A stretch of DNA of 29,968 bases from Aureispira sp. (GCA_024222455.1 JAAEPD010000521.1:1-29968); one strand, 5' to 3'; positions 5,031 to 29,705 are shown, counted from the stretch's first letter. Numbers and translations: made by a program. The notes: generated by a model from the letters alone, not told the origin.

Positions 5031-6437
5031 TTAATCCTCTGACTCATCCATACGAACAATCTTAGGATGGAATGCTCCTACTATATCAACTAGATCTTGC
5101 TGAGCTGACATCACATCATGAATATTTTTGTAGGCAAATGGTGCTTCATCCAAACCACCTCCAATCAATTCAACTCCTTTTCTATTGAGCTCTTCACGCA
5201 ACATTTTATTCGTAAATTGATTTTTAGCCTTTCGACGAGAAAACAATCGTCCTGCTCCATGTGAAGCCGAATTGATAGCATTCTCAGCACCTAATCCACG
5301 TACAATATAAGCTGGTGACGCCATAGATCCTGGAATAACCCCCAACTCTCCTTTCTTAGCTGGTGTAGCTCCCTTACGGTGAACAAAAACATTACGACCA
5401 TCAGCCAACTGCTCTTTCCATGCAAAGTTATGGTGATTTTCGACCATTGCTAGCGATTTCATCCCTAGTGCATTGGATATTCGTTTGTGGATATGGTGAT
5501 GACAAGCAGATGCATAATCTCCAGCCATATTCATAGCCATCCAATATTCTTGACCTTCACTCTCGTTCATATACAACCAAGACAAATGAGCTACCTCTTT
5601 AGGTAGATTTCGTTTATCCTTAGCTATTCGAGTATAAGTGTTGGCTATTTTAGCTCCAAATCCTCTAGAACCAGAATGAGATAAGACTGCTAGATACTCA
5701 CCTAATGGGAGTCCAAATTCATTGTTTTCATTTGTGATAACTACCACTCCAAAATCAACGAAATGATTACCTCCACCAGAAGACCCAATTTGACGATAAG
5801 CTTTGTCTTTCAAGTGTTGTAGCAATGCTAAGTCTTTGAATTCATCTCGATCCAAAAAATCATCATCTCGCTTGTTGTCCTCAAAAGTAGAGCGTCCAAA
5901 TCGAGTATTATCTGTCAAGATAGTCTTTAGCAGATCAGTATTTTTAGTCAAAAAATCTTTTCTTGCTTCAAATATGCTCATACACATACGGCATCCAATA
6001 TCAACACCTACACCATAAGGTATAATAGCATCTTGTGTAGCCAAGACACCTCCAATAGGTAATCCATAACCTTGATGAGCATCAGGCATTAGGGCACCAT
6101 CCACAGTTATGGGCAAGCTCATGGCTTGACGCATTTGTTTTTTGGCACCATCCTCTATACCTTCTGCTCCATAGATTTGGAAAGGTTTGTCTTTGAATTC
6201 GTAAATTTCTCGCTTGGCTTTTTTATCTGCAATCTTGATAGCTATAGGAGCTAATGTTGGGTTACCAAGATAATCTTCTGGTTTCTCTATAATTTTCTGC
6301 AAGATATCCATTTTAGTCTCCTTGCTTTCATACTTATAGGCTCGTCCAACTATGATCATAGCCAAACTTCTGATTGCAGCATCTCGGTAGCCTAGTTGAG
6401 ATAAATCTTTCCCACGCAATTTTGCTTTTTTAGACAT
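5031..6437 (-). CDS. rtcB: RtcB family RNA-splicing/repair ligase
   Basis: 468 aa with the signature NSASHGAGR and GGGNHF motifs and a conserved metal-binding Cys/His pattern. No rtcA or rtcR nearby. Confidence 0.93.
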   Translation of the reverse strand: MSKKAKLRGKDLSQLGYRDAAIRSLAMIIVGRAYKYESKETKMDILQKIIEKPEDYLGNPTLAPIAIKIADKKAKREIYEFKDKPFQIYGAEGIEDGAKKQMRQAMSLPITVDGALMPDAHQGYGLPIGGVLATQDAIIPYGVGVDIGCRMCMSIFEARKDFLTKNTDLLKTILTDNTRFGRSTFEDNKRDDDFLDRDEFKDLALLQHLKDKAYRQIGSSGGGNHFVDFGVVVITNENNEFGLPLGEYLAVLSHSGSRGFGAKIANTYTRIAKDKRNLPKEVAHLSWLYMNESEGQEYWMAMNMAGDYASACHHHIHKRISNALGMKSLAMVENHHNFAWKEQLADGRNVFVHRKGATPAKKGELGVIPGSMASPAYIVRGLGAENAINSASHGAGRLFSRRKAKNQFTNKMLREELNRKGVELIGGGLDEAPFAYKNIHDVMSAQQDLVDIVGAFHPKIVRMDESED

Positions 6438-17395: not shown

Positions 17396-20300
17396 TTATC
17401 GAACAATTGTCACTGTTCCTTTATAAGGTACAGGATTATCAAAACCAGGGAATGTCACTAATATTACATAGTAATAAGTAGCATCAGCTACATTTTGGCC
17501 ATTGTTTGTTCCATCCCAAGTACCATCATAATTGGTAGCTTTAAATACCAATTGTCCCCATCTATTATAAACTTCTACTTCGTTGTCATATAAAGTCAAA
17601 CATGGGATTTCCCAGAAATCATTGACTCCATCTTTGTTTGGTGTGAAACCAGCATGTTGAGGTACACAACGTCCAACTGGAATTGGAACTGAAACAGTAT
17701 CACTACAACCATAATTATCAGTTACTTCTAACAAATAAGTAGTTGTCTCCAATGGTTGAGTTGTAGTACTTGCAGCAGTAGGATCAACAACCCAAGTTGT
17801 TGGAGTCCAAACATAAAATAAATTGTTACCAACACTTGCACTACCATCTAGTGTAGCAATCTGCCCTAAGAGCAATTCACTTGCAGCATCTGTAGTAGCA
17901 ACAGCATCTACAGTATTAAATGTAGCACCTAATGTAGCTGTATTACAAGTCAAAGCATCTGTAGCAGAAACAGACCAAACATCTCCATCTTCTAAATTGA
18001 TAGTATGCACTCCTGAAACATTATTAGCATCCACTAAATATGGTGCACTAGTTCCATTGATGGTTACCGTAATAATATAGTCAGCACTACCCGCAGTCAA
18101 CGCAGGTAAACCTCCAGTCAAGGTAATATCCAATTCTGCATTACCAACACTATCACAGTCATAAGTATAAGTCCCTGTTCCACCATTGATTGCTACATTG
18201 GTATATCCAGGATCATTACACAAGTTACCACAAGTAGAAGGTGTCCATGCAAAAGAACCAGCAGTACTGTCTTCACAGTTGCCATCAGAAACAACAACAA
18301 CCCAGCTGTCACCATCTGTTACTTGGAAAGTATAAGCTACTGTGTCATTTATTTGACCAGCTACAGGTATTTGATAACCACTGTTTCCAGTTGGGCCTAT
18401 AATTGTTACTAAGTAATTAGAAGCATCAAAGCTTGGCTGACCTCCAGACAAGGAAATAGTGATATCTGCTGTTTTGTCAATATTACAAGTATAATTTCCA
18501 GCTGTTACACCAATATTTGCTAAGGCACAAACATTAGGACAGTTGGCTGCATTAAACACATACGCCCCAGTTTCACTATCTGTACAGTTAGACTGATCTG
18601 ATACCGTTATAGTCCAATTATCTCCATCCTCTACTGTAAAGGTGTACTGTACACTGTTGCCAACTACTCCAGCAACCTGTGCATTCGATACATTACCCCC
18701 TGTACTTGCTGTAGATCCTGTAACAGTTACATCATAATTAGATGCATCGTAAGAAGGCTGTCCACCAGCAATAGTTACCGCCACAGAAGCAGAACCATCA
18801 CCATTACAGGTATAAGTATAAGGACCCACTACCAATGGATCTAATAAACAAATGTTACAGTTCGTTGCATTGTAATTGTATGTAGCAGAAGCCGTATCTA
18901 CACAGCCACTAGAGTCTGTTGCGACTACTTGCCATGTATCTCCATCATTAACAGAGAATTGGAAAGCTCCAGCTCCTTGTACATAAGAACCATTAGCTCC
19001 AGCAAAATTAGACCCCGAAACTACAATAGACTGATAGTTGCCTGTTGCAGCAGCCTGTCCACCTGATATATATAGTGTTACTAATGCTGTTCCATTAGCG
19101 CTACAAGTATAAACCGTGCTATCTATTGGATCTGGTAAGATTTGAACAGGATTAGGGCCACAAGGATCACAATCTTGCAAATAATTGAATGTTCCAGTTG
19201 CAGTATCAGCACAAGCATTAGAGTCTATGGCAACAACCTGCCAGTTATCTCCATCACCTACACTAAACTGGAAGGCACCTGTACCTTGTACATAAGTACC
19301 GTTGCCACCAACTGTAGAACCCGTAACTGTTATAGATTGGAAGTTTCCACCATTAGCTCCAGCTGCTCCACCTATTAAGTATAAAGTAACTGTTGCTGTA
19401 GTAGCTGGTGTATTACAAGTATAAACACTACTATTGACTGGATCAGGTAATATTTCTACTGGCATCATTGCACATGGATCACAATCCGTCAAGAAATCGT
19501 AAGCATCACTAAGTGTATCTGCACACATTGCAGTGTCAGTCACTATCATTTGCCAGTTATCTCCATCATTAACAATGAATGAGAAAGTAGATGTACCTCC
19601 TACAACTCCAGGAAGTGTTGCATTAGTATAATTTTGTCCAAATACAGTAGAACCCGCTACATTAACAGTATAGTTACTACCATCATTGGTAGGAGCACCT
19701 CCGCTTACAGTTACTTCCACTATAGAAATACCACTAGCCTGACAATTGTAACTATAGTTGGCAATTACAGGATTAACAGCACAGTAATCTGGACAGTTTG
19801 TTAAGTTATATGTAAATGTATGTGAAGCAGTATCAGCACAAGCATTAATATCGCCTGCTATAACTTGCCATGTATCTCCATCTCCTACAGTAAATGAGAA
19901 TGGGGTTGGAGCAGCACCGTTATTATCAGTTACATTGTATGTTGTATTTTGTCCAGGAATTGTAGAACCTGAAACATTTACAATATAATCACCACCTGTT
20001 GTACTTGGCTGACCTCCTGTCAAGAAGATAGTCACCAATGCAGAATCACCACCAGGCAAACAAGTATAAACACTGCTGTCTATTGGATCAGGAGTAATAA
20101 ATACAGGATTGTTTTTACAAGGATTCAAACAAGTTGCTGCATTGATCGATATAGTAACACCACAACCTGAATTATCGAAAATTTCTACAGTATATACATC
20201 AGCTGTTGGTACAGAAACAGACTGTACAACACCATTACCCATTGTTCCCATACTAATTGTATCACCGATAGTATTGGTTACTACCCATGTAAAGTCAGAA

Positions 20301-23092
20301 CCATTGTACGCAGGTTCTCCACCACTAGCAGAGAATCCAATCACACAATTGTTAGGATCATAAGTTTGTGTAGTTGTTATTTGTTGTAAGAATACAACTG
20401 GTGCACCATTTTCGATACTAGCACTTGGACAAATCAATTGTCCCCAATCGCTAGCTCTATCTGCCATCGCTGTTACGTGATAAACGGTATTAAATTGAGG
20501 ATTTCCGAAAGATCCACTACCATTACCATCGTTCACAAAATGGTGAGGTCCCAAAAATACAGAATCTAAATAACCAAAGTTACCATTGATAATAGAATCT
20601 GGTAATGGTGGAATGCTATCATGGATAACATATCCTAAACCCATACAATCAGGAATCTTACTAGTAGTTAATCCTAACCCGTCAAACATTACACTAGGAA
20701 GGATAGTATCATTATAACAAATGAATGCAGTATCCATGCTGTTGTAATTAATAGTATCTCCATGCTGAGTTGTATAGCGAGAATCACCTGCATAAACTTC
20801 TTCTTCGTTGATATACTCTATAATATACTGCCCTTGATCACCAGGCGAACCACCATCCAATTGGATAACATAAGTTTGTCCAGGATTCAAGCAACATAAA
20901 TCAACAGTAGAACCATTGAAACCAGTACTACCAAAAGCAATTGGTGTAACCTGCTGTGTACCCTGAGTACCATCTTCAGTATAAGTAGCACCTCCTATAG
21001 TTGTTGGACTCAATCCACCATAGCAAGTATCACCACCTAAAAGTTCATACACAGAATAGTTCAATGTATCTAATCCAATATAAGCACGCAAACGCATCTC
21101 AATAACACCAGAAGGTGGGGCTACAAAGTAATGCCAAACCGTTTGGTTAGCTCTATTACTATCTACAGTATGAGAGAATGGCTCACCTGCCAATGTCTCT
21201 ATACAAGCATTTTCGTTAGTACCTGCTACAGAACCAAAAGTTAATGGCGGTTGACCAATCAACTGTACAGGCACCTCATAGATAGAATCTGAATTTGTTA
21301 AACACAAAATATCATTACCTGGAGGGTTTTGAGTAGGATCAGCAATACTAGGATCATAAGCCCATACTTCAGCTTCATTAGCTAAAGAAACGCCTTGAGG
21401 ATCAACCATACCATAGTAAGTATAGCCTGGCTCCAAACAACGTCTCTCTATAATAGCTGTTTTATTAGAACTCAAAATACCAGTTCCACCTTCTACATCT
21501 TCCAGTTGTGTCAAGTTAGCACAAGACATATCTGCTGGAGTACCAGGAGCAAATCTAGCATCATAAGCATAAAAAGCTAAGTTTTCGGTCTCATTCAAAG
21601 GACCAGCATCTAAATCGCCTTCTAAATAGATACGTCCACTAGGCCCTGCTGTAAACTGAAACCACATACTACCATTCAACCCATTTCCATTAGGAGAGGT
21701 ATAAGTATAAGCTACATAGTCCTGAGCATTGTTTCCTGTAAATGGAGCATCAATTTCTTCATCACTAACTCTATCTGTAGTCAACTGTGTTGATTCTGGT
21801 AATCCATTAGCTTCTGTACGTACAGTAGTAGATTGTGCATCTGCTGTAATATCTGTACCTTGACAAGGTATGTCTACGCCATCAAATGGGCTACCACCAA
21901 TATCTTCTATTCTGATACCAATGTACCCTCTTTCGTTAGCATCATCTGTGGTCAACTGTATATAATAAGTTTCCCCTGCTATTAAGGCATGACCATCACG
22001 TATACTTGGTGCAACATTAAGTACATCACCAAAATGTGCTGTAGCCTCAGCACTTGGATTGATAACAGGAATATCATCATCGGCATGACCTTGGTAAGAA
22101 AGGTAATCGAATTTGTTTTTGATAGGTGTTGGCCCTACATATCCAATATAATTATTGAATCCTGCCAAACAACCTAATCCATCAGCTGCATGGTATAATG
22201 CTAGCTCTGTTCCAAACTCAGTAGTTGCTACATCTGTTTCAATGGTCACTTGACCACTGGCAGGCGCTACAAAATAGAACCAAGCAGAACCATGTCCACC
22301 ATTAGCTACACTATTAAATTCTGGCTCATCACCATTAGCATCCATAGTTAAAGGACCACACCAAGCAAAAGCTTGAGTAGTATTATTAACAGGTATCTGT
22401 ATAGCATTACAAATATCATCTTCGGCTACATTCACAGATAAAGCTAAACGAGTAACCTCAAATGTAATTTCATAATCTTGTGGACAACCACCATCTGTAC
22501 TACTCAACATTCTAGTGATAGGTCCACTAGTACCAGGTGCAGCAGGAACAGGAATATTGAAAGCTTCTATAATTGTTTCTCCATCCATACCTCCAATACC
22601 ACCATTGTAAGATTGTGTTAAATCATCATTATCATAAGCAATCCACCGCATATTCATGACCGTAGGTACATCTGAGGCACAAGGGTACTCATGATTAAAA
22701 AATAATCCATTCCCTGGAATATATTCAGCATCGCCTGAATTAAGAAAGCAAGTACCTCCAATATTAGGGCCTCCTGGAACTAATGTAAATGCTCCATTAT
22801 TATTATCAACATAGGCATGATTAAAATCACCACCTAATCGACCATTCACTAATCCAAAAAGATTAGCTGAAGAATTATTATTGGTTTTTCCAATAGTGTT
22901 ATCTGTTGCTTGAAACTCCCATGTAAAATCACTCTCACAGGTAGCAAACCCATCACAATCTTCATTTTTAGTAACTTCTACAGATGTTACTCTCACTTGG
23001 ACAATAGCTTGCCCATAGCTACTATTCAGTGCAAAAATCATTAATACACAGGCTAAACAGCCACGTGCTAATGTGTAAGTAGTTCTTAACAT
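17396..23092 (-). CDS. giant cell-surface adhesin-like protein (1898 aa) with ~7 tandem ~100-aa Cys-framed beta-rich repeats and a gliding-motility-associated (type B, CHU_C) T9SS C-terminal domain
   Basis: N-terminal signal peptide. The C-terminus carries the TIGR04131-type motif GFTPNKDGVNDFWEIP...YNRWGQLVF. Internal repeats are of the form C..NPV.ILPDP.DS.VYTC...V.GS...G.NG.YVQG.GAFQFSV.DGD.WQVVA.DS..CADT. The paired porP/sprF gene follows. Confidence 0.88.
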   Translation of the reverse strand: MLRTTYTLARGCLACVLMIFALNSSYGQAIVQVRVTSVEVTKNEDCDGFATCESDFTWEFQATDNTIGKTNNNSSANLFGLVNGRLGGDFNHAYVDNNNGAFTLVPGGPNIGGTCFLNSGDAEYIPGNGLFFNHEYPCASDVPTVMNMRWIAYDNDDLTQSYNGGIGGMDGETIIEAFNIPVPAAPGTSGPITRMLSSTDGGCPQDYEITFEVTRLALSVNVAEDDICNAIQIPVNNTTQAFAWCGPLTMDANGDEPEFNSVANGGHGSAWFYFVAPASGQVTIETDVATTEFGTELALYHAADGLGCLAGFNNYIGYVGPTPIKNKFDYLSYQGHADDDIPVINPSAEATAHFGDVLNVAPSIRDGHALIAGETYYIQLTTDDANERGYIGIRIEDIGGSPFDGVDIPCQGTDITADAQSTTVRTEANGLPESTQLTTDRVSDEEIDAPFTGNNAQDYVAYTYTSPNGNGLNGSMWFQFTAGPSGRIYLEGDLDAGPLNETENLAFYAYDARFAPGTPADMSCANLTQLEDVEGGTGILSSNKTAIIERRCLEPGYTYYGMVDPQGVSLANEAEVWAYDPSIADPTQNPPGNDILCLTNSDSIYEVPVQLIGQPPLTFGSVAGTNENACIETLAGEPFSHTVDSNRANQTVWHYFVAPPSGVIEMRLRAYIGLDTLNYSVYELLGGDTCYGGLSPTTIGGATYTEDGTQGTQQVTPIAFGSTGFNGSTVDLCCLNPGQTYVIQLDGGSPGDQGQYIIEYINEEEVYAGDSRYTTQHGDTINYNSMDTAFICYNDTILPSVMFDGLGLTTSKIPDCMGLGYVIHDSIPPLPDSIINGNFGYLDSVFLGPHHFVNDGNGSGSFGNPQFNTVYHVTAMADRASDWGQLICPSASIENGAPVVFLQQITTTQTYDPNNCVIGFSASGGEPAYNGSDFTWVVTNTIGDTISMGTMGNGVVQSVSVPTADVYTVEIFDNSGCGVTISINAATCLNPCKNNPVFITPDPIDSSVYTCLPGGDSALVTIFLTGGQPSTTGGDYIVNVSGSTIPGQNTTYNVTDNNGAAPTPFSFTVGDGDTWQVIAGDINACADTASHTFTYNLTNCPDYCAVNPVIANYSYNCQASGISIVEVTVSGGAPTNDGSNYTVNVAGSTVFGQNYTNATLPGVVGGTSTFSFIVNDGDNWQMIVTDTAMCADTLSDAYDFLTDCDPCAMMPVEILPDPVNSSVYTCNTPATTATVTLYLIGGAAGANGGNFQSITVTGSTVGGNGTYVQGTGAFQFSVGDGDNWQVVAIDSNACADTATGTFNYLQDCDPCGPNPVQILPDPIDSTVYTCSANGTALVTLYISGGQAAATGNYQSIVVSGSNFAGANGSYVQGAGAFQFSVNDGDTWQVVATDSSGCVDTASATYNYNATNCNICLLDPLVVGPYTYTCNGDGSASVAVTIAGGQPSYDASNYDVTVTGSTASTGGNVSNAQVAGVVGNSVQYTFTVEDGDNWTITVSDQSNCTDSETGAYVFNAANCPNVCALANIGVTAGNYTCNIDKTADITISLSGGQPSFDASNYLVTIIGPTGNSGYQIPVAGQINDTVAYTFQVTDGDSWVVVVSDGNCEDSTAGSFAWTPSTCGNLCNDPGYTNVAINGGTGTYTYDCDSVGNAELDITLTGGLPALTAGSADYIITVTINGTSAPYLVDANNVSGVHTINLEDGDVWSVSATDALTCNTATLGATFNTVDAVATTDAASELLLGQIATLDGSASVGNNLFYVWTPTTWVVDPTAASTTTQPLETTTYLLEVTDNYGCSDTVSVPIPVGRCVPQHAGFTPNKDGVNDFWEIPCLTLYDNEVEVYNRWGQLVFKATNYDGTWDGTNNGQNVADATYYYVILVTFPGFDNPVPYKGTVTIVR
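17930..20040 (-). repeat. intragenic tandem coding repeats, ~7 copies of ~300 nt, diverged
   Basis: The protein-level repeats of the adhesin are visible at the nucleotide level as diverged tandem copies, e.g. the ...ccttgtacataagtaccgtt / ...ccttgtacataagaaccatt blocks. Coordinates are approximate. Confidence 0.6.
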
Positions 23093-23319: not shown

Positions 23320-23345
23320 TTGAATCAAGAATATTCTTGATTCAA
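23320..23345 (+). promoter_or_regulatory. perfect 26-bp palindrome TTGAATCAAGAAT|ATTCTTGATTCAA, 14 nt upstream of the SIR2-CHAT start codon
   Basis: Read directly from the sequence. The reverse complement equals the sequence itself over all 26 nt. The position overlaps the translation-initiation region of the 23359 gene and lies in the divergent intergenic region shared with the adhesin gene. Confidence 0.6.
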
Positions 23346-23358
23346 AACTTAATACTAT

Positions 23359-24876
23359 ATGAATCCATCTACTTGGCGTCACTTCTATAAGAGTTTACAC
23401 AAAAACTCTTGTATTTTAATCTTGGGGCCCCGCATCGCAACTTTCTTAGGAGAGTCAGGGGAAGAACAAATAGATCAAGCTTTTTCTAGACAACTCTCTA
23501 AAGAGATTGAAGATAAAAACAATGCAAGTACTACTGCAAACAAAATATCTTTTGATTCCTCCCAAAGAGATAACTTACCTTATGCCTCTATGCGCTGGAC
23601 CAAAGGGCTAAGAATGAAGGATACAATTCTTAGAGAAGAGTTGTGTAGTTTCTTTGATAACTCAGTGAGTAGGCCTCCTAAAATTTATAAAGATTTAGCC
23701 AAGCTCCCTTTCTCTCTAGTTATTAATACTAGCCCTGATGAGTATATGCATCAAGCATTTATGCGAGTAGGCAAAGAGGCAGAACAACTTCATTACAACT
23801 ATCAACGAAATCAAGCGTCTTTAACTCCTGAAATAAGCATTGATAAGCCTGTGGTTTACAACCTTTTTGGAACAATAGAAGAAACAGAATCCTTGGTTAT
23901 TACGAAAGAAGATCAGGTCAATTTCATCAATAATCTGCTTGGAAATACCTCTACCCTTCCAAATGAGATCTTGCAACATTTTGACGAACATAAAACTTAC
24001 TTATTCTTAGGTTTTGACAGTAATGATTGGCATCTTCCTCTCCTATTTAGGAGTTTGCGCTTGCACAAAGAAAAAGAAATGTCCTTTTATTTACATGACA
24101 GTCCTATAAAAGCAGCTACTAAAGATTTTTATATAGACTCCTTTGACTTTCAGTTTGTATCAAATGATGAAAATACATTTGTACATGATTTAGCTCAAGG
24201 ATATATTGAATGGGAAGAGAGCCAAAAAGGAAAATCTAGCAATACTAATGAAAGTTCAAAACCAAGCTATATCACTTCTCCACAACCAGGAGTAAAAGGA
24301 AAAGTAAATATATTAATGATGACAGCGAACCCTAAGGATACAGCTGCAATAGAACTCAATGACGAAATAGATGTCATTGAGGAAGTACATATGCGAGGCA
24401 CAGAACGTAGTAAGTTCTTTTTCAAGCCTATTCTAAATACTAAAAAAGCTCGTTTATTAGAATTACTTCTACGACACAATCCTCAAATCGTGCATTTTTC
24501 GGGGCATGGTACGGGTCGGGCTGGATTGGTTTTTTATGGAGAATCGGGCAGTGCAGATATGGTTCAAGGGCCAGAGTTAGCTAACCTATTCAAACAATTC
24601 AATACCCAAATTAGCTGTGTCATTCTCAATGCTTGTTACTCTGAAGAACAAGCCCAAGTTATGGCTCAATATATTCCTAATGTAATTGGAACCAATAACG
24701 CAATTGATGACCAAGTTGCCATCAAATTTACAGAAGGATTTTACACCGCAATTTTTGCAGGCAAAAATTATGAAGACTCCTTTAATTTGGGAATAGCTCA
24801 TGTAGGCTTGCACAGTTTTCCAGAAGGTGGTCGTCCTGTATTTTATAAAGATGGTAAAAAAATAGATGCAGCATAA
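23359..24876 (+). CDS. SIR2-like (SIR2_2/DHS-like NAD-binding fold) domain fused to a C-terminal CHAT caspase-like peptidase domain
   Basis: 505 aa. N-terminal half has SIR2_2-like blocks: ILILGPRIATFLG (Rossmann start), LVINTSPDEY (TTNYD-like), VVYNLFGTIEETESLVITKEDQV (KLHGS...lvlTeedY-like) and YLFLGFDSNDWHL (lFiGySl.D-like). C-terminal CHAT: PQIVHFSGHGTGRAGLVF (His) and CVILNACYSEEQAQ (Cys). The stop overlaps the start of the next gene (TAATG). Confidence 0.8.
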   Translation: MNPSTWRHFYKSLHKNSCILILGPRIATFLGESGEEQIDQAFSRQLSKEIEDKNNASTTANKISFDSSQRDNLPYASMRWTKGLRMKDTILREELCSFFDNSVSRPPKIYKDLAKLPFSLVINTSPDEYMHQAFMRVGKEAEQLHYNYQRNQASLTPEISIDKPVVYNLFGTIEETESLVITKEDQVNFINNLLGNTSTLPNEILQHFDEHKTYLFLGFDSNDWHLPLLFRSLRLHKEKEMSFYLHDSPIKAATKDFYIDSFDFQFVSNDENTFVHDLAQGYIEWEESQKGKSSNTNESSKPSYITSPQPGVKGKVNILMMTANPKDTAAIELNDEIDVIEEVHMRGTERSKFFFKPILNTKKARLLELLLRHNPQIVHFSGHGTGRAGLVFYGESGSADMVQGPELANLFKQFNTQISCVILNACYSEEQAQVMAQYIPNVIGTNNAIDDQVAIKFTEGFYTAIFAGKNYEDSFNLGIAHVGLHSFPEGGRPVFYKDGKKIDAA

Positions 24877-26633
24877 TGAGTCAACAACATAAACATAATC
24901 GTTATCCTGGTATTCGCTCTTTTGAGCAGTACGAAAGTGCCCTGTTTTTTGGAAGACGCCAAGAAACTCGCGAGCTTTATAGCCTCATAAAAGTAGAACA
25001 ATTTGTAGTTCTTTTTTCTAAATCAGGATTGGGAAAAACATCCTTGCTTAATGCAGGGGTTTTACCATTATTAGAACAAGAAGAATATAGTTCTGTTAAG
25101 GTGCGTTTTCAGAACAAAGGAGTCTCACCTTTAAATATGCTGTGGAATGCTGTCAAAAGCAGAATGGAAGAACTGCAGATAGACTCCATGGTAAACCAAC
25201 GAATAAAAGCTTGGTGTGGAAACCGCCCCCCTAGTCTTTGGGAATATTTCAAAGCTTGTTCTATGGTAATGAATTATTTGCCAGCTGTTCCTATTCTAAT
25301 TTTAGATCAATTTGAGGAGTTTTTTATACACTCAAAGAAAGATCAATCCATATTGATTCAGCTCTTAGCTGATATTATCTTTGGACGTGTACCCACAGAT
25401 GTTCAGAAAACCCTAAAAGAAAAAAAGGCTCCAAGCGCCCGAGATGAACAATGGACAGAACCGCTTAACTGGAAATTAGTATTTGCTATCCGATCTGACC
25501 GCTTGAGTATGTTGGATAATTTGAGTGCTCAGATACCTCCCATTCTGAGCAATCGCTATCAATTGCATCCGCTTAGCAAAAGAAAAGCTGAGGAAGCTAT
25601 TTTACTCCCTGCTCAATCTGGCGCTTATGATTTTGCATCTGATAAATTTAATTACTCTGATGATGCTTTAGATGATATTATTAATAATCTGAGTAACGAA
25701 AAAGGAGAAATTGAGTCTTTTCAACTACAAATCATCTGTGGGCATTTAGAGGATATTGTAATTCAAAAGCAGCTAAAAACGGTTGAAGTTCATCATATTG
25801 GTGGAGCTGATGGCATCAAACAAATTCTAAATAACTACTATCGAAATCGAATAGATTCTATAGGTACTGCCGAAGAGCAACAACTAGCTACCAAACTCAT
25901 TGAGGAAGGCTTAATTGTAGATGGTGCAAGAGTTAGTCTTGCTGAATCTATTGTAACAAGTCGATATAATATAACAGATTCTTTATTGAGTAAGTTACTA
26001 GCTACTCGTTTAATAAAACCAGAAAACACGCATTTAGGCAAGGCTTACGAGGTTTCACATGATACACTAGTTGCACCAATTCTCACCTCTTTTAAGCAAC
26101 GTAAACTAGAGGAAGAACGACTACAACGTGCCCAAGAAAAAAAGGAGCAAGAAGAAAAATTAGCAGCTCAACAAGCTGAATTAGAAGAAGAACAACGTCG
26201 TCGTCGTCAGGCCAACCGTAGAACAACCATAGCTGTAGGATTTGCAATACTTGCCTTGATTGCTTCTATTGCGGCATATATACTCTGGACAAAGGCCGAG
26301 ACTGCTACTGAAGCAGCTGTAAATGCAGTAAAAAATAGAGAGGCACAACTCAGGGTATCAGATAGTTTAAGAATAGTTTCAGATAACGCAAGAATAGAGG
26401 CTGAAAGAAGTCTTAAGGATTATCATTTAGCAGAGGTAAAGCGTCTTAACACTAAAATTAATATGATGAATAGTTCAAGTCAGTTTAAGGCAGAAAAAGA
26501 GTTGCATACGAAGCGTTTAGTCTTTATCGAAAAAGTGCTCAAAAACTCTACCACTACACCTGAAGAACAACAAGAAATGGAAGCCTTGCAAAAACAAGCA
26601 GTTGCTCGTCTTGAAGAACTTAAGGATTATTAA
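24876..26633 (+). CDS. STAND-class P-loop NTPase with a C-terminal coiled coil, one TM helix and a further coiled-coil tail
   Basis: 585 aa. FFGRRQETRELYSLI...VVLFSKSGLGKTSLLNAG is the Walker A element with the preceding FxGR motif typical of STAND/AAA_16-like NTPases. PILILDQFEEFF is Walker B (hhhhDQFEE). LVFAIRSDRL is a sensor-like motif. Then comes a K/E/Q-rich coiled coil, the TM helix TIAVGFAILALIASIAAYILW and a ~115-aa C-terminal coiled coil. Translationally coupled to the upstream SIR2-CHAT gene. Confidence 0.8.
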   Translation: MSQQHKHNRYPGIRSFEQYESALFFGRRQETRELYSLIKVEQFVVLFSKSGLGKTSLLNAGVLPLLEQEEYSSVKVRFQNKGVSPLNMLWNAVKSRMEELQIDSMVNQRIKAWCGNRPPSLWEYFKACSMVMNYLPAVPILILDQFEEFFIHSKKDQSILIQLLADIIFGRVPTDVQKTLKEKKAPSARDEQWTEPLNWKLVFAIRSDRLSMLDNLSAQIPPILSNRYQLHPLSKRKAEEAILLPAQSGAYDFASDKFNYSDDALDDIINNLSNEKGEIESFQLQIICGHLEDIVIQKQLKTVEVHHIGGADGIKQILNNYYRNRIDSIGTAEEQQLATKLIEEGLIVDGARVSLAESIVTSRYNITDSLLSKLLATRLIKPENTHLGKAYEVSHDTLVAPILTSFKQRKLEEERLQRAQEKKEQEEKLAAQQAELEEEQRRRRQANRRTTIAVGFAILALIASIAAYILWTKAETATEAAVNAVKNREAQLRVSDSLRIVSDNARIEAERSLKDYHLAEVKRLNTKINMMNSSSQFKAEKELHTKRLVFIEKVLKNSTTTPEEQQEMEALQKQAVARLEELKDY

Positions 26634-27214
26634 ACAATTGATTGCATTTTTTCCTTCATCTGCTTTGCAAAATAGAAATATAGGAGCAAATATAAAGGCA
26701 TGCCCAAAACCAAGTAAATCACAGCACCTTCTGGACCATAATTTTGGTTAATAGCTTTGTAAAATTGGTTCTGGGTTAAAAAGGATTGCAACAAAAGATA
26801 TAGAAAGCCTACAAAAAGGCCAATATTTAGAATCATTAGCACAGTTCCTAATGCACCAGTAGGCTGTATAAGTAACCCTCCTATATATACAATCCAAGAT
26901 AAAATATAAACCATCAAGGTCAGTTTAGAATAGGACCTGAAGTTTTCATAAATTGCCTCTGCTCTAGTATAGGAATGATTCTCAAGATTTCCTGTCAATT
27001 TCAGATGCTCCTCATCCAGACCTCTTTCTTTTAGGATTGAGATAGCTGCATCTCTCCATTCCAAAGCATAACCATATTGTCGATAGTTTTTGACAACATC
27101 CATTAGTTTTTCGGTATCCAAATTCTGCAATCGTTCTATTGGCTCATCCATTTTAGCTTCTAGTTTTGGGTATAATATACAAAGTACTACTTTGGGTGTA
27201 TAAATAAAAGCCAC
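26630..27214 (-). CDS. hypothetical polytopic membrane protein, 194 aa
   Basis: Three or four hydrophobic helices (LTLMVYILSWIVYIGGLLI, TVLMILNIGLFVGFLYLLL, VIYLVLGMPLYLLLYFYF). Its stop codon overlaps the stop codon of the convergent NTPase gene (tTAa). Confidence 0.55.
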   Translation of the reverse strand: MAFIYTPKVVLCILYPKLEAKMDEPIERLQNLDTEKLMDVVKNYRQYGYALEWRDAAISILKERGLDEEHLKLTGNLENHSYTRAEAIYENFRSYSKLTLMVYILSWIVYIGGLLIQPTGALGTVLMILNIGLFVGFLYLLLQSFLTQNQFYKAINQNYGPEGAVIYLVLGMPLYLLLYFYFAKQMKEKMQSIV

Positions 27215-27485: not shown

Positions 27486-29705
27486 ATGAAAAATTACTTT
27501 TTTATTTTATGGTTTATTGCTAGTGGCAACATCCTATTGGGGCAAAATAATGCCTTAACTTTTGATGGTGTAGACGATTATGTAGAAATGGCTAACAACA
27601 CTATTGTTGGTTCTACAACAATGACAATAGAAGCTTGGGTTAATTCAAGCGCTATTGGCTCTGATGGAATATTTTCGATAGAAGGAGTAGTCAATTGTAT
27701 AGTCTCAAATAATGGAAATGTTCGATTCTTTTTTGATGGAAGCTCAAGCGGTTCTACAAATTTTGCTGCAGGCATAAACGATGGTGCTTGGCACCATGTA
27801 GCAGCAACTAATGATAATGGGACAACTAGAGTCTATGTTGATGGTGATTTATTAGGCACCCAATCCGAATTGGTAGATACTGCAACAATCAATTCGTTGA
27901 ATAGACCTGTTACGATTGGAGCTTTAAGTCCTGGTTCTGGACCAGGTAGCTTTTTTCAAGGAATGATTGATGAGGTTAGAGTATGGAATGTTGCTCGTAC
28001 AGAAACAGAAATTCAAAACAACATCTGTCAACTCTCAAATCCAGCTTCTGAACCCAATTTGGTGGCTTATTATGATTTTAATCAATCTACAGGAATGCTT
28101 TTATCTGATTTAGGACCATCTAGTTTTAATGGTGCGTTGATGAATATGATAGGAACAGAATGGTCTGCAAGTTCTTGTCCTTTAGCTAACATAGCATCTA
28201 TCTACCCAAAAGTTTCTTCTAAACTGACAGATGCATACCCTATAGAGATGCCTAACCTAAATGCTTATCCATTGTATGCACATGCTGAAGTAAAACCAGC
28301 ATGGGCTGTAAACTTGACTAATGTTGAGTTTTTGGTGAATGGAACTACACCAATCCCTACTACCCAAGAAGATGGCTATTATATGGCTTGGTGGACACCC
28401 ACATCTACAGGCAGCCATGACATCCATGTGAAAGCTACTGCTAGCAATGGAAATTCTACCACAGATACAATAACCGTAAATGTTGTCGATACTGCATCGA
28501 ATAGAAATGTACAAACATTTGATGGTGATTTAATTGATTTTGGTAGCGCTTCTAGATGGTTTTATGGCACTTACACCTTGCCTCAATCTATAGGCGCCTA
28601 TGATCAGATCATTGCTAATTTTTCAGTTACCTGCCCTTCTATTTCTGGAGGTTGCGATGACTGGGATCGATTAGCTTATGTAGAATACAAAGCACCAGAT
28701 GGTTCTTGGATGGAGTTATTCCGCTATATTACACCTTATGGAGTTGCTTGCAATCATAGTATAGATGTTACGGATTATGCATCTTTGCTGCATGGCAATA
28801 TCGAACTAAGAATGTTTATTGACACTTGGGGGTCTGGTGGCTGGGATATTCACTTAGATTTTGACTACATTGCAGGCACCCCCACTTATCTGTATTCCAG
28901 CATACAAGAAGTATGGCATGGTAGTTATAATTTCGGAAATCCAGCTGATTTACAGCCTTGTGATACTGTTTCTATAGATTTTCCAGCCAACTCTCAAAAA
29001 GCAACTTTTAGAGTTACGACTACGGGGCATGGTTGGGGAAGCAACAACACCTCAAATGCAGCTGAATTTTATAACGCTACACATCAGTTTCACATTAATT
29101 CTGCGCACATTTTTACGCAAAATCTGTGGAACACCTGCAACCCTAATCCAGATAACTGTACCAACCAAAATGGCACATGGTACCATAATAGAGCAGGTTG
29201 GTGTCCAGGCGCTATTGCACCTCCCAATACTTATGATTTAACACCCTATATTGGCTCAAGTCCATTTGATTTTGCATATGTATTCCAACAATCGTATCAA
29301 GATCTTTGTCACCCTAATAATCCATCTTGCGTTAGTGGAACAACTTGCTCTGATTGTAATGCTGGATATAATCCATTTTATAGAATTGGAGGTTATATGA
29401 TTAGCTTTAGCAATGCTCCTGTCATCACTAGCACTTTTGGATTAGAAGAACAAGAAGAATTTGACTTAATAGTCTACCCTAATCCTAATAATGGTATTTT
29501 CAATATGAATTTAGCTAACCCAACAACAGAAACTGTTGTAACGGTTAATGACATATCAGGAAAAACTCTAAAAACATATTACTTTGGCAATAATGAGGAG
29601 TTGAATAATTATCAATTTGATCTCTCCAACTTAAGCTCAGGAGTATATTTCATTAAGATTAATACAGAAAAACAAGAAACGGTTAGAAAATTAGTATTGC
29701 ATTAG
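27486..29705 (+). CDS. secreted multidomain protein: LamG/concanavalin-A-like lectin domain, then a PNGase F-like (peptide-N4-(N-acetyl-beta-glucosaminyl)asparagine amidase F) two-domain core, then a T9SS type A C-terminal sorting domain
   Basis: Signal peptide. The LamG_3-like block is LTFDGVDDYVEM...WHHVAAT...RVYVDG...IDEVRVWN. The core is colinear with recalled Elizabethkingia PNGase F: CDDWDRLAYVEYK matches CDEWDRYANVYVK; SIDVTDYASLLHGNIELRMFIDTW matches EIDVTDFKSLLSGNTELKIYTETW; DFDYIAGTPTYLYS matches DFDIVYGTPDYKYS; RAGWCPGAIAPP matches RAGWCPGMAVPT; FYRIGGYMISFSN matches FYAISSFVIAKSN. The C-terminus FDLIVYPNPNNGIFNMNL...VYFIKINTEKQETVRKLVLH is a T9SS CTD. Confidence 0.85.
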   Translation: MKNYFFILWFIASGNILLGQNNALTFDGVDDYVEMANNTIVGSTTMTIEAWVNSSAIGSDGIFSIEGVVNCIVSNNGNVRFFFDGSSSGSTNFAAGINDGAWHHVAATNDNGTTRVYVDGDLLGTQSELVDTATINSLNRPVTIGALSPGSGPGSFFQGMIDEVRVWNVARTETEIQNNICQLSNPASEPNLVAYYDFNQSTGMLLSDLGPSSFNGALMNMIGTEWSASSCPLANIASIYPKVSSKLTDAYPIEMPNLNAYPLYAHAEVKPAWAVNLTNVEFLVNGTTPIPTTQEDGYYMAWWTPTSTGSHDIHVKATASNGNSTTDTITVNVVDTASNRNVQTFDGDLIDFGSASRWFYGTYTLPQSIGAYDQIIANFSVTCPSISGGCDDWDRLAYVEYKAPDGSWMELFRYITPYGVACNHSIDVTDYASLLHGNIELRMFIDTWGSGGWDIHLDFDYIAGTPTYLYSSIQEVWHGSYNFGNPADLQPCDTVSIDFPANSQKATFRVTTTGHGWGSNNTSNAAEFYNATHQFHINSAHIFTQNLWNTCNPNPDNCTNQNGTWYHNRAGWCPGAIAPPNTYDLTPYIGSSPFDFAYVFQQSYQDLCHPNNPSCVSGTTCSDCNAGYNPFYRIGGYMISFSNAPVITSTFGLEEQEEFDLIVYPNPNNGIFNMNLANPTTETVVTVNDISGKTLKTYYFGNNEELNNYQFDLSNLSSGVYFIKINTEKQETVRKLVLH

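Follow-up and report, generated by a model that had tools for sequence, protein, structure and literature searches.

A candidate membrane-anchored conflict module in Aureispira pairing a degenerate SIR2-like/CHAT protein with an nSTAND1 NTPase

What might a bacterium do with two overlapping genes that join a sirtuin-fold domain and a caspase-like protease to a membrane-spanning NTPase, and on which side of the membrane would such a system meet its trigger? We addressed this question for a gene pair on a 29,968-nucleotide (nt) stretch of DNA from Aureispira sp. (GCA_024222455.1, JAAEPD010000521.1:1-29968), referred to here in its full length as the window. Aureispira belongs to the Bacteroidota, family Saprospiraceae, and the type IX secretion system (T9SS) sorting domains in neighbouring open reading frames (ORFs) agree with this origin. 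Our analysis gives an even chance that the pair forms the heart of an NLR-like conflict module (immune or cell-suicide) anchored in the membrane, with the CHAT protease as its effector and with extracytoplasmic sensing. Its most informative features are a constant, degenerate SIR2-like domain, the putative adaptor, with swappable effectors, and a hypervariable or modular extracytoplasmic C-terminus.

23359..24876, plus strand: gene 1 (505 amino acids, aa), a degenerate SIR2-like domain, a flexible linker and a short CHAT (caspase-like) protease domain
24876..26633, plus strand: gene 2 (585 aa), an nSTAND1 NTPase, a stalk helix, a single transmembrane (TM) helix and a variable tail
24874..24878, plus strand: TAATG, joining the gene 1 stop to the gene 2 start through a shared A; translational coupling

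An initial annotation, made from the sequence alone, had assigned SIR2_2, CHAT and STAND domains to the two products. A Pfam profile search recovered all three above their curated cut-offs, and an ORF check confirmed both the gene boundaries and the stop/start overlap. Both products match exactly database entries of the Aureispira sp. metagenome-assembled genome (MAG); gene 2 has locus tag GY810_25000.

The sirtuin-like domain and the CHAT protease of gene 1

An AlphaFold2 (AF2) model of gene 1, built on the family alignment, reached a mean predicted local distance difference test score (pLDDT) of 88.1 and consists of two compact domains separated by a disordered linker at residues 293-301. 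The domains and motifs on which the argument rests are the following.

23359..24228, plus strand: SIR2-like domain (SIR2_2 fold, aa 1-290), the proposed adaptor/oligomerisation module coupling the effector to nSTAND1
23425..23433, plus strand: GPR (aa 23-25), where sirtuins have the nucleotide-binding GAG loop; Pro24 does not vary within the family
23725..23739, plus strand: NTSPD (aa 123-127), replacing TTNYD; the canonical catalytic Asn position is Ser125
23860..23871, plus strand: NLFG (aa 168-171), replacing KLHG; the canonical catalytic His position is Phe170
24229..24303, plus strand: linker between the two domains (aa 291-315), of low confidence, with pLDDT below 50 at 293-301
24304..24873, plus strand: short CHAT/caspase-like protease domain (aa 316-505)
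24505-24507, plus strand: CHAT catalytic His383, invariant
24634-24636, plus strand: CHAT catalytic Cys426, invariant

The N-terminal half has a clearly sirtuin-like fold. Its top structural neighbours in the AF2 model are ThsA, KomC, DSR2 and Avs5, and Pfam SIR2_2 matches aa 120-239 above its cut-off (E 5.9e-11). Such a domain could be an NAD+-depleting effector, as in ThsA, DSR and Avs5, acting together with the CHAT protease under STAND control, and the initial annotation had leaned towards a role of this kind. We consider it very improbable. All three sirtuin signatures of gene 1 are replaced: an alignment to Streptococcus equi ThsA (SeThsA, PDB 7uxt) shows the loss of the catalytic His and of the catalytic Asn that had been named as a mutation target, and the GAG loop has changed as well. 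Every Bacteroidota-type homologue of the SIR2-like+CHAT or SIR2-like+TIR kind has lost the same motifs. With aa 1-290 of gene 1 as query, an exhaustive HMMER search returned 844 representative clusters at E<=1e-10. In the 146 best of these, the catalytic His is always replaced (by F, Y, L, C or M), 128 have Pro in the Gly (GAG) loop, and Asn is retained in about 19. As judged from these alignments, the degeneration is a property of the clade and not peculiar to gene 1, and NAD+ hydrolysis by its SIR2-like domain is not expected.

The case for a NAD+ hydrolase (NADase) draws on several further observations. Methanosarcina SIR2+CHAT relatives retain GAG, TTNYD and HLHG. In gene 1 itself, Asp127 is present and the invariant Asn123 and Asn168 lie two residues before the canonical catalytic positions. 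According to the Avs5 report (PMC12931631), PaAvs5 is functional as an active NADase with NG instead of HG; the same report describes N110A and D112A substitutions in the TTNXD motif that abolish Avs5 function, which speaks against activity once this motif is altered.

The C-terminal half matches Pfam CHAT at aa 334-470 (E 3.1e-8), above the cut-off, and its best PDB match is the SAVED-CHAT filament 8tl0 (E 2e-12). The intact His/Cys dyad noted in the initial annotation holds up, since His383 and Cys426 are invariant in 23 full-length family members and align to the dyad motifs of 8tl0. The likely effector of gene 1 is the CHAT protease rather than NAD+ depletion.

The CHAT domain also has a wider distribution of its own. 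A profile scan of genome contigs with the full-length gene 1 alignment picked up CHAT motifs and gave full-length matches only at three loci (L004-L006 in our numbering, which is used below for loci, with P numbers for proteins). Its matches were almost exclusively CHAT-only relatives from cyanobacteria, at least 598 in number. The short CHAT of gene 1 is 40-46% identical to these at least 598 domains, which come mostly from filamentous cyanobacteria (L007-L083) and are fused to many other modules, among them TIR, NB-ARC, AAA and pentapeptide. It looks like an effector cassette in wide use.

Conservation of the pair and exchange of partners

A metagenome scan seeded on the degenerate SIR2-like domain with an 11-sequence alignment returned 80 loci, which we analysed with hidden Markov models (HMMs) built from the family. 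They contained 69 distinct SIR2-like proteins, 57 of them with judgeable downstream DNA. An nSTAND1 gene lies directly downstream of the SIR2-like gene in 53 of these 57 loci, whereas it lies upstream in one and is absent from three. From the nSTAND1 side, a SIR2_2 gene adjoins nSTAND1-TM in 4/4 sampled loci on long contigs. The two counts together confirm a conserved gene pair. The intergenic spacing of homologous pairs, mostly -4 to +12 nt, bears out, with the TAATG overlap, the translational coupling of gene 1 and gene 2. The pair was confirmed in L001, L002 and L004 and is also found in Methanosarcina (L003 and L006). Pairs sit in unrelated genomic contexts, and the Aureispira MAG itself holds at least two paralogous pairs (P0014 represents one paralogue).

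What changes from locus to locus is the partner of the SIR2-like domain. TIR is the commonest, CHAT is rarer, and other proteins carry an N-terminal nucleotide cyclase, an extension without family assignment, or nothing. At L168 the SIR2-like protein carries EAD1 at its N-terminus, the preceding gene encodes EAD1 with trypsin, and an nSTAND1-TM gene belongs to the cluster; by the homotypic 'EAD principle' of Kaur et al. 2020 (PMC7159879), the shared EAD1 would let this SIR2-like protein recruit the trypsin. P0214, which lacks a TM helix, is a single chain of nSTAND1, degenerate SIR2-like and EAD11 domains. Because the SIR2-like domain stays constant and degenerate while its partners vary, an adaptor that docks or oligomerises on nSTAND1 fits it better than an effector does. 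That bona fide effectors (TIR, CHAT, cyclase, EAD-recruited trypsin) are exchanged around this unchanging domain also argues against NAD+ depletion as its role.

The Methanosarcina loci show a related arrangement. At L003 (M. barkeri, CP008746.1, 6001-12412) three genes encode, in this order, a SIR2-CHAT protein with canonical motifs, a stand-alone SIR2-like protein, which keeps GAG and TTNYD and has Tyr in place of His, and an nSTAND1-like protein of 1245 aa with a TM helix at 449; L006 is arranged similarly.

The membrane-spanning NTPase and its variable tail

Gene 2 can be divided as follows.

24903..26093, plus strand: nSTAND1 NTPase module (aa 10-406), a P-loop domain with helical and winged-helix domains
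25017..25040, plus strand: Walker A SKSGLGKT (aa 48-55); K49, S50, G51, G53 and K54 are invariant
25293..25319, plus strand: Walker B ILILDQFEE (aa 140-148)
26061..26228, plus strand: charged stalk helix (aa 396-451), which runs on into the TM helix in the AF2 model and ends in RRRRQANRR at the predicted cytoplasmic face
26229..26285, plus strand: single TM helix IAVGFAILALIASIAAYIL (aa 452-470), predicted N-in/C-out
26286..26630, plus strand: predicted extracytoplasmic helical tail (aa 471-585, 115 aa)

The match to Pfam nSTAND1 (PF20703) spans aa 10-406 (E 1.6e-30; 107.5 bits against a cut-off of 27.1). An N-terminal peptide of the module, RYPGIRSFE, is conserved, as is an FFGR motif at aa 24-27, and the GLGKT of Walker A and DQFEE of Walker B are invariant or nearly so among 42 homologues. 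The AF2 model, again on the family alignment (mean pLDDT 87.7), comprises an ORC/Cdc6-like STAND module (aa 1-395), an uninterrupted helix (396-464) and then three more helices, and its structural matches include Cdc6/ORC, MalT, CED-4, Dark and Avs-type NTPases. There is one hydrophobic segment, aa 452-470, directly after RRRRQANRR. Pfam, hydrophobicity and the conserved columns thus bear out the STAND Walker motifs and the single TM helix. Membrane anchoring had been called unusual; in the nSTAND1 subfamily it is the rule. One strongly hydrophobic 19-mer follows right after the NTPase module in 102 of 120 nSTAND1 homologues, at aa 424-543 apart from one outlier at 904, and the label 'nSTAND1+TM' occurs 412 times in the Figure 2 source data of Kaur et al. 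2021 (PMC8195603).

The charges around this helix point to its orientation. The 15 residues on either side carry on average 6.1 Lys and Arg before the helix against 2.7 after it, with an excess before it in 97 proteins and fewer before it in 2. This bias supports an N-in/C-out topology, which is as expected of a cytoplasmic NTPase without a signal peptide.

The nSTAND1 gene falls into two ORFs at four independent loci, each time with the break at about profile position 296, where the P-loop core gives way to the part with the helical and winged-helix domains and the TM helix (L086, 2735-4799; L098, 7233-9349; L135, 7064-9541; L146, 6908-9424). The recurrence suggests a natural split gene rather than a sequencing error.

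Beyond the membrane the family is variable. Post-TM tails cluster at about 80-125, 150-225 and 420-540 residues, and the long ones consist of WG-repeat+LRR, WD40 or FGE-sulfatase domains. Identities in the NTPase module and in the tail are 94% vs 34%, 94% vs 35% and 93% vs 49% in close pairs, and tails range from 34 to 52% across pairs that are 90-94% identical in the module. P0225 and P0234 (nSTAND1-TM-FGE-sulfatase) are 94% identical in the NTPase and only 34% in an external part of 450 aa; their divergence could reflect domain swapping or hypermutation of the diversity-generating retroelement (DGR) type. When gene 2 is compared with homologues that share 62-65% identity in the NTPase module, its tail shows no detectable similarity to theirs, and Pfam finds in it neither a family match nor a C-terminal sensor module (FGS lectin, beta-propeller, TPR or LRR).

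The same domains recur next door as separate genes. At loci with short tails, the next gene often encodes a signal-peptide protein in which a shared helical N-terminal module of about 100 aa is joined to WG+LRR or WD40 domains. Such partner genes are seen in L001, L002, L004, L094, L139 and L140, with weaker cases in L107, L108 and L086. Third genes with a signal peptide, the helical module and WG repeat plus LRR lie at 8500-10611 in L001, 9830-11722 in L002, 6800-8236 in L004, 3316-5247 in L094 and 4763-8479 in L139, and the WG+LRR module is found fused after the TM helix in P0157, P0156, P0160 and P0161. WD40 genes also flank the pair at L165. A four-gene version exists in a cultured strain, Haliscomenobacter hydrossis DSM 1100, on plasmid pHALHY02 (L164, NC_015512.1, 732-7709). 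Its operon encodes a stand-alone degenerate SIR2-like protein of 357 aa, an nSTAND1-TM protein of 551 aa (ATGA overlap) and two signal-peptide WD40 proteins. Because the same modules are either fused after the TM helix or split off as signal-peptide genes, they would be expected to function outside the cytoplasm, and the variable post-TM region together with the secreted partners suggests extracytoplasmic, outside-in sensing.

A conflict module could also use the tail only as an anchor or oligomerisation element. Its trigger, for example at phage DNA entry sites or through membrane depolarisation, would then be sensed in the cytoplasm or at the inner membrane face, and the membrane would merely localise the complex. 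The short, purely helical, low-complexity tail of gene 2 and the lack of a partner gene in the window would suit this arrangement. So would two reports, one placing Avs5 at membrane-associated phage entry sites (PMC12931631) and the other, Kaur et al. 2021, reading the FGS domains of nSTAND1 proteins as intracellular sensors (PMC8195603). We nevertheless judge it quite unlikely. In relatives, whole LRR, WD40 or FGE domains follow the TM helix, and the positive-inside bias is strong. Neighbouring genes encode these modules behind signal peptides, which is hard to explain without an extracytoplasmic function, and divergence is faster in the tail than elsewhere in the protein.

Proposed mechanism, genomic setting and known systems

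We propose that the tail of gene 2, alone or with an unlinked secreted partner, would sense a signal in the envelope or periplasm, for example phage attack. This would drive NTP-dependent oligomerisation of the cytoplasmic nSTAND1 NTPase modules, and the degenerate SIR2-like domain would dock the effector onto this platform and cluster it there. The CHAT protease would then be activated by proximity, as caspases are on the apoptosome, and would cleave cellular targets, leading to cell arrest or death. In this respect the overall logic of the initial annotation, a STAND switch with a caspase-like effector, holds.

Several observations weigh against such a module. PaAvs5 is active with NG (PMC12931631), so loss of the His alone is no proof of inactivity. 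Stand-alone SIR2-like proteins of about 330-390 aa occur with nSTAND1-TM and no other recognisable effector, which favours the NADase explanation too and suggests a possible activity of the degenerate domain itself. We infer from linked and fused genes only that the SIR2-like domain binds nSTAND1 directly. The tail of gene 2 amounts to 115 aa of helices with a modest pLDDT of about 60-78, and the fast divergence of tails could reflect low constraint rather than diversifying selection. Searches of the window with tblastn and with an HMM of the N-terminal module found no secreted LRR or WD40 partner gene; with no partner gene nearby, a sensor role for this short tail is weak, and the sensing step is the weakest link for the Aureispira locus. 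The window has no obvious defence island, and PADLOC-DB 2.0 contains no system model for the pair and gave weak single-domain matches only, in keeping with the earlier statement that this is not known as a named defense system.

The surroundings of the pair are as follows.

5031-6437, minus strand: RtcB RNA ligase, 17 kb from the pair
8874-11381, plus strand: ORF of 835 aa with MVP_shoulder (4e-30), Vault_3 and Band_7 domains, a bacterial homologue of the eukaryotic major vault protein
12801-15962, minus strand: protein of 1053 aa with TPR and a full-length CHAT domain (E 4e-56), thus another caspase-like protein, unrelated and some 8 kb away from the pair
16213-17187, minus strand: PorP/SprF gene, adjoining the 1898-aa surface protein
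17396-23092, minus strand: repetitive CHU_C/T9SS-sorted surface protein of 1898 aa, divergent from gene 1
26630-27214, minus strand: multi-TM ORF of 194 aa without a family match, convergent with gene 2 and overlapping its stop by 4 nt
27486-29705, plus strand: secreted LamG and PNGase-F-like protein that ends in a T9SS sorting tail; the gene lies 850 nt beyond gene 2

Neither the 194-aa ORF nor the LamG/PNGase-F-like gene is linked to the pair at other loci. An RtcB gene also occurs at L168 (87-1541), directly upstream of the cluster of EAD1-trypsin, EAD1-SIR2-like and nSTAND1-TM genes; its proximity to the pair in both places may be coincidence. The window has no Rfam match and no tandem repeat array.

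A setting of surface and secretion genes without defence genes could point away from phages altogether. The pair might belong to a transmembrane signalling or programmed-cell-death module serving a filamentous, social or predatory lifestyle, for example in kin or neighbour sensing, in filament fragmentation, or in HetF-type CHAT differentiation as in cyanobacteria. Its hosts lie in filamentous or multicellular lineages (Saprospiraceae, Haliscomenobacter, Methanosarcina), Kaur et al. 2020 link such systems to the multicellular habit (PMC7159879), and an external sensor would suit cell-cell or environmental cues. However, the NCBIfam match to HetF that would favour this view reaches 16 bits against a cut-off of 1200, and the NCBIfam search gave nothing meaningful for the gene pair. 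Effectors are swapped among TIR, CHAT, trypsin and cyclase; tails are hypervariable, paralogues multiple and one version plasmid-borne; and the distribution is patchy, in unrelated contexts. These are, if indirect, hallmarks of a conflict system and not of housekeeping development, and we regard the lifestyle explanation as unlikely. No nSTAND1 relative was found in a phage collection.

One regulatory feature lies just upstream.

23320..23345, no strand assigned: perfect, spacer-less 26-bp palindrome TTGAATCAAGAAT/ATTCTTGATTCAA, 14-39 nt upstream of the gene 1 ATG

This palindrome is the only spacer-less one in the window with arms of at least 10; an arm of at least 13 arose in 1 of 300 dinucleotide-preserving shuffles of the window. 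Its predicted RNA hairpin has a dG of -14.4 kcal/mol, and it is possibly an operator or a hairpin in the 5' untranslated region. The initial annotation was right about its 26-bp perfection and wrong in placing it over the initiation region, as it ends 13 nt before the ATG. Tight repression through this element is unsupported speculation: the upstream regions of eight homologous pairs contain no inverted repeat like it, copies of the half-site in the window do not exceed chance, and no regulator gene is encoded at the locus.

The pair can be compared with several known systems. Kaur et al. named nSTAND1 (eLife 2021, PMC8195603) as part of predicted counter-invader systems. EADs or effectors stand at the N-terminus of these proteins and FGS or other sensors at the C-terminus; the abstract calls the sensors intracellular. 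The pair shares with these systems the NTPase family, intact NTP motifs, a caspase or TIR effector fused or next door, and a variable C-terminus. In contrast, the tail of gene 2 is short and helical without a repeat or lectin domain, while the main text discusses N-terminal EAD/effector fusions and intracellular FGS sensing, and 'transmembrane' never refers to nSTAND1 in the portions searched. The source data of that study do list 'CASPASE-> nSTAND1+TM' and 'TIR-> nSTAND1+TM...', as well as '?-> nSTAND1+TM+BetaPropeller' from Aureispira sp. CCB-QB1, and in the rows viewed the upstream gene is '?', 'TIR' or 'CASPASE' (PMC8195603). A string search of its supplementary files for 'SIR2+TIR', 'SIR2+CASPASE' and 'SIR2+nSTAND1' found none of them.

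Avs5 and other SIR2-STAND proteins, DSR2 and ThsA likewise couple a sirtuin-fold domain to a STAND or other sensor. Their SIR2 domain, according to the Avs5 report (PMC12931631), keeps GAGXS, TTNXD and HG (or NG), is an NADase effector and is fused to the sensor, whereas gene 1 has GPRIA, NTSPD and FG, is a separate protein with CHAT as its likely effector, and comes without SLOG, ThsB or cytoplasmic sensor repeats. We rejected membership of Avs5/DSR on the lost motifs and on the location of the SIR2-like and STAND parts in separate overlapping genes (the fusion in P0214 has a different order). Thoeris was rejected on Ser125 and Phe170 in the comparison with SeThsA and on the lack of SLOG or Macro domains in gene 1 and gene 2; TIR has no match in gene 1, gene 2 or the other scanned ORFs of the window, and the PADLOC ThsA matches are weak (1.5e-8) and cover the SIR2 region only.

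SAVED-CHAT (8tl0) and Craspase, associated with type III CRISPR, are oligomerisation-activated caspase-like proteases. Of the solved structures, that of SAVED-CHAT comes closest to the CHAT domain of gene 1, and its His/Cys motifs are the same. Unlike them, the pair lacks SAVED, and we propose activation by a STAND NTPase rather than by cyclic oligoadenylate or an RNA-guided complex. Both were rejected, with no SAVED match in Pfam and no tandem repeat array in the window; the PADLOC SAVED_CHAT match is confined to the CHAT region (aa 297-479). The two-gene EACC1-caspase systems (Kaur et al., eLife 2020, PMC7159879) also combine a single-TM component with a caspase-fold protein, as a predicted membrane sensor and protease. 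EACC1, though, is a small 5' TM domain without an NTPase and is found mainly in actinobacteria, whereas here the TM protein is the 3' STAND NTPase. This candidate was rejected too, as the gene upstream of gene 1 encodes the divergent 1898-aa CHU_C protein.

The apoptosome (Apaf-1/CED-4 with caspase-9/CED-3) and the bacterial gasdermin-associated pairs of NLR-like ATPase and protease would work by the same logic, a STAND platform that activates a caspase-fold protease via an adaptor. The differences are that the putative adaptor here is a degenerate sirtuin and not CARD, that the NTPase spans the membrane and has an external tail, and that the locus has no gasdermin or obvious substrate gene. 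By analogy only, family members with an LRR ectodomain, a single TM helix and a cytoplasmic TIR partner resemble the outside-in layout of Toll-like receptors. They would differ from these in the NTPase switch interposed and in carrying TIR or CHAT on a separate adaptor, and the gene pair has neither LRR nor TIR.

Most characterised bacterial STAND or NLR-like sensors, such as Avs and bNACHT, are described as detecting phage proteins in the cytoplasm. Our search, in the limited literature that it covered, found no paper on a SIR2-like/CHAT and nSTAND1-TM pair or on a degenerate sirtuin adaptor. The operon type is catalogued, and the searched portions of this literature do not describe the meaning of the TM helix, the secreted partners encoded in trans or the degenerate sirtuin adaptor.

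We tentatively suggest, at clearly less than even confidence, that the pair belongs to a widespread family of single-pass transmembrane NLR-like outside-in receptors, a prokaryotic counterpart of a Toll-like receptor plus apoptosome in both Bacteria and Archaea. Their fast-evolving external sensor, whether a helical tail, an LRR, WD40 or FGE domain or the secreted product of a neighbouring gene, would meet the threat before or during its passage through the envelope. The cytoplasmic nSTAND1 switch would then assemble, with a dead sirtuin fold as universal adaptor for CHAT, TIR, trypsin and cyclase effectors. In practical terms, 'SIR2 family protein' labels in the clade of gene 1 should not be taken to mean NADases, and the operon of the cultured H. 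hydrossis DSM 1100 makes experiments feasible. If the proposal is correct, an inactive sirtuin fold would join Death-like domains, EADs and CARD among the few immune adaptor domains, and the family would raise the question of whether prokaryotic NLR-like proteins sense threats in the envelope or periplasm and relay them to caspase-like or TIR effectors.

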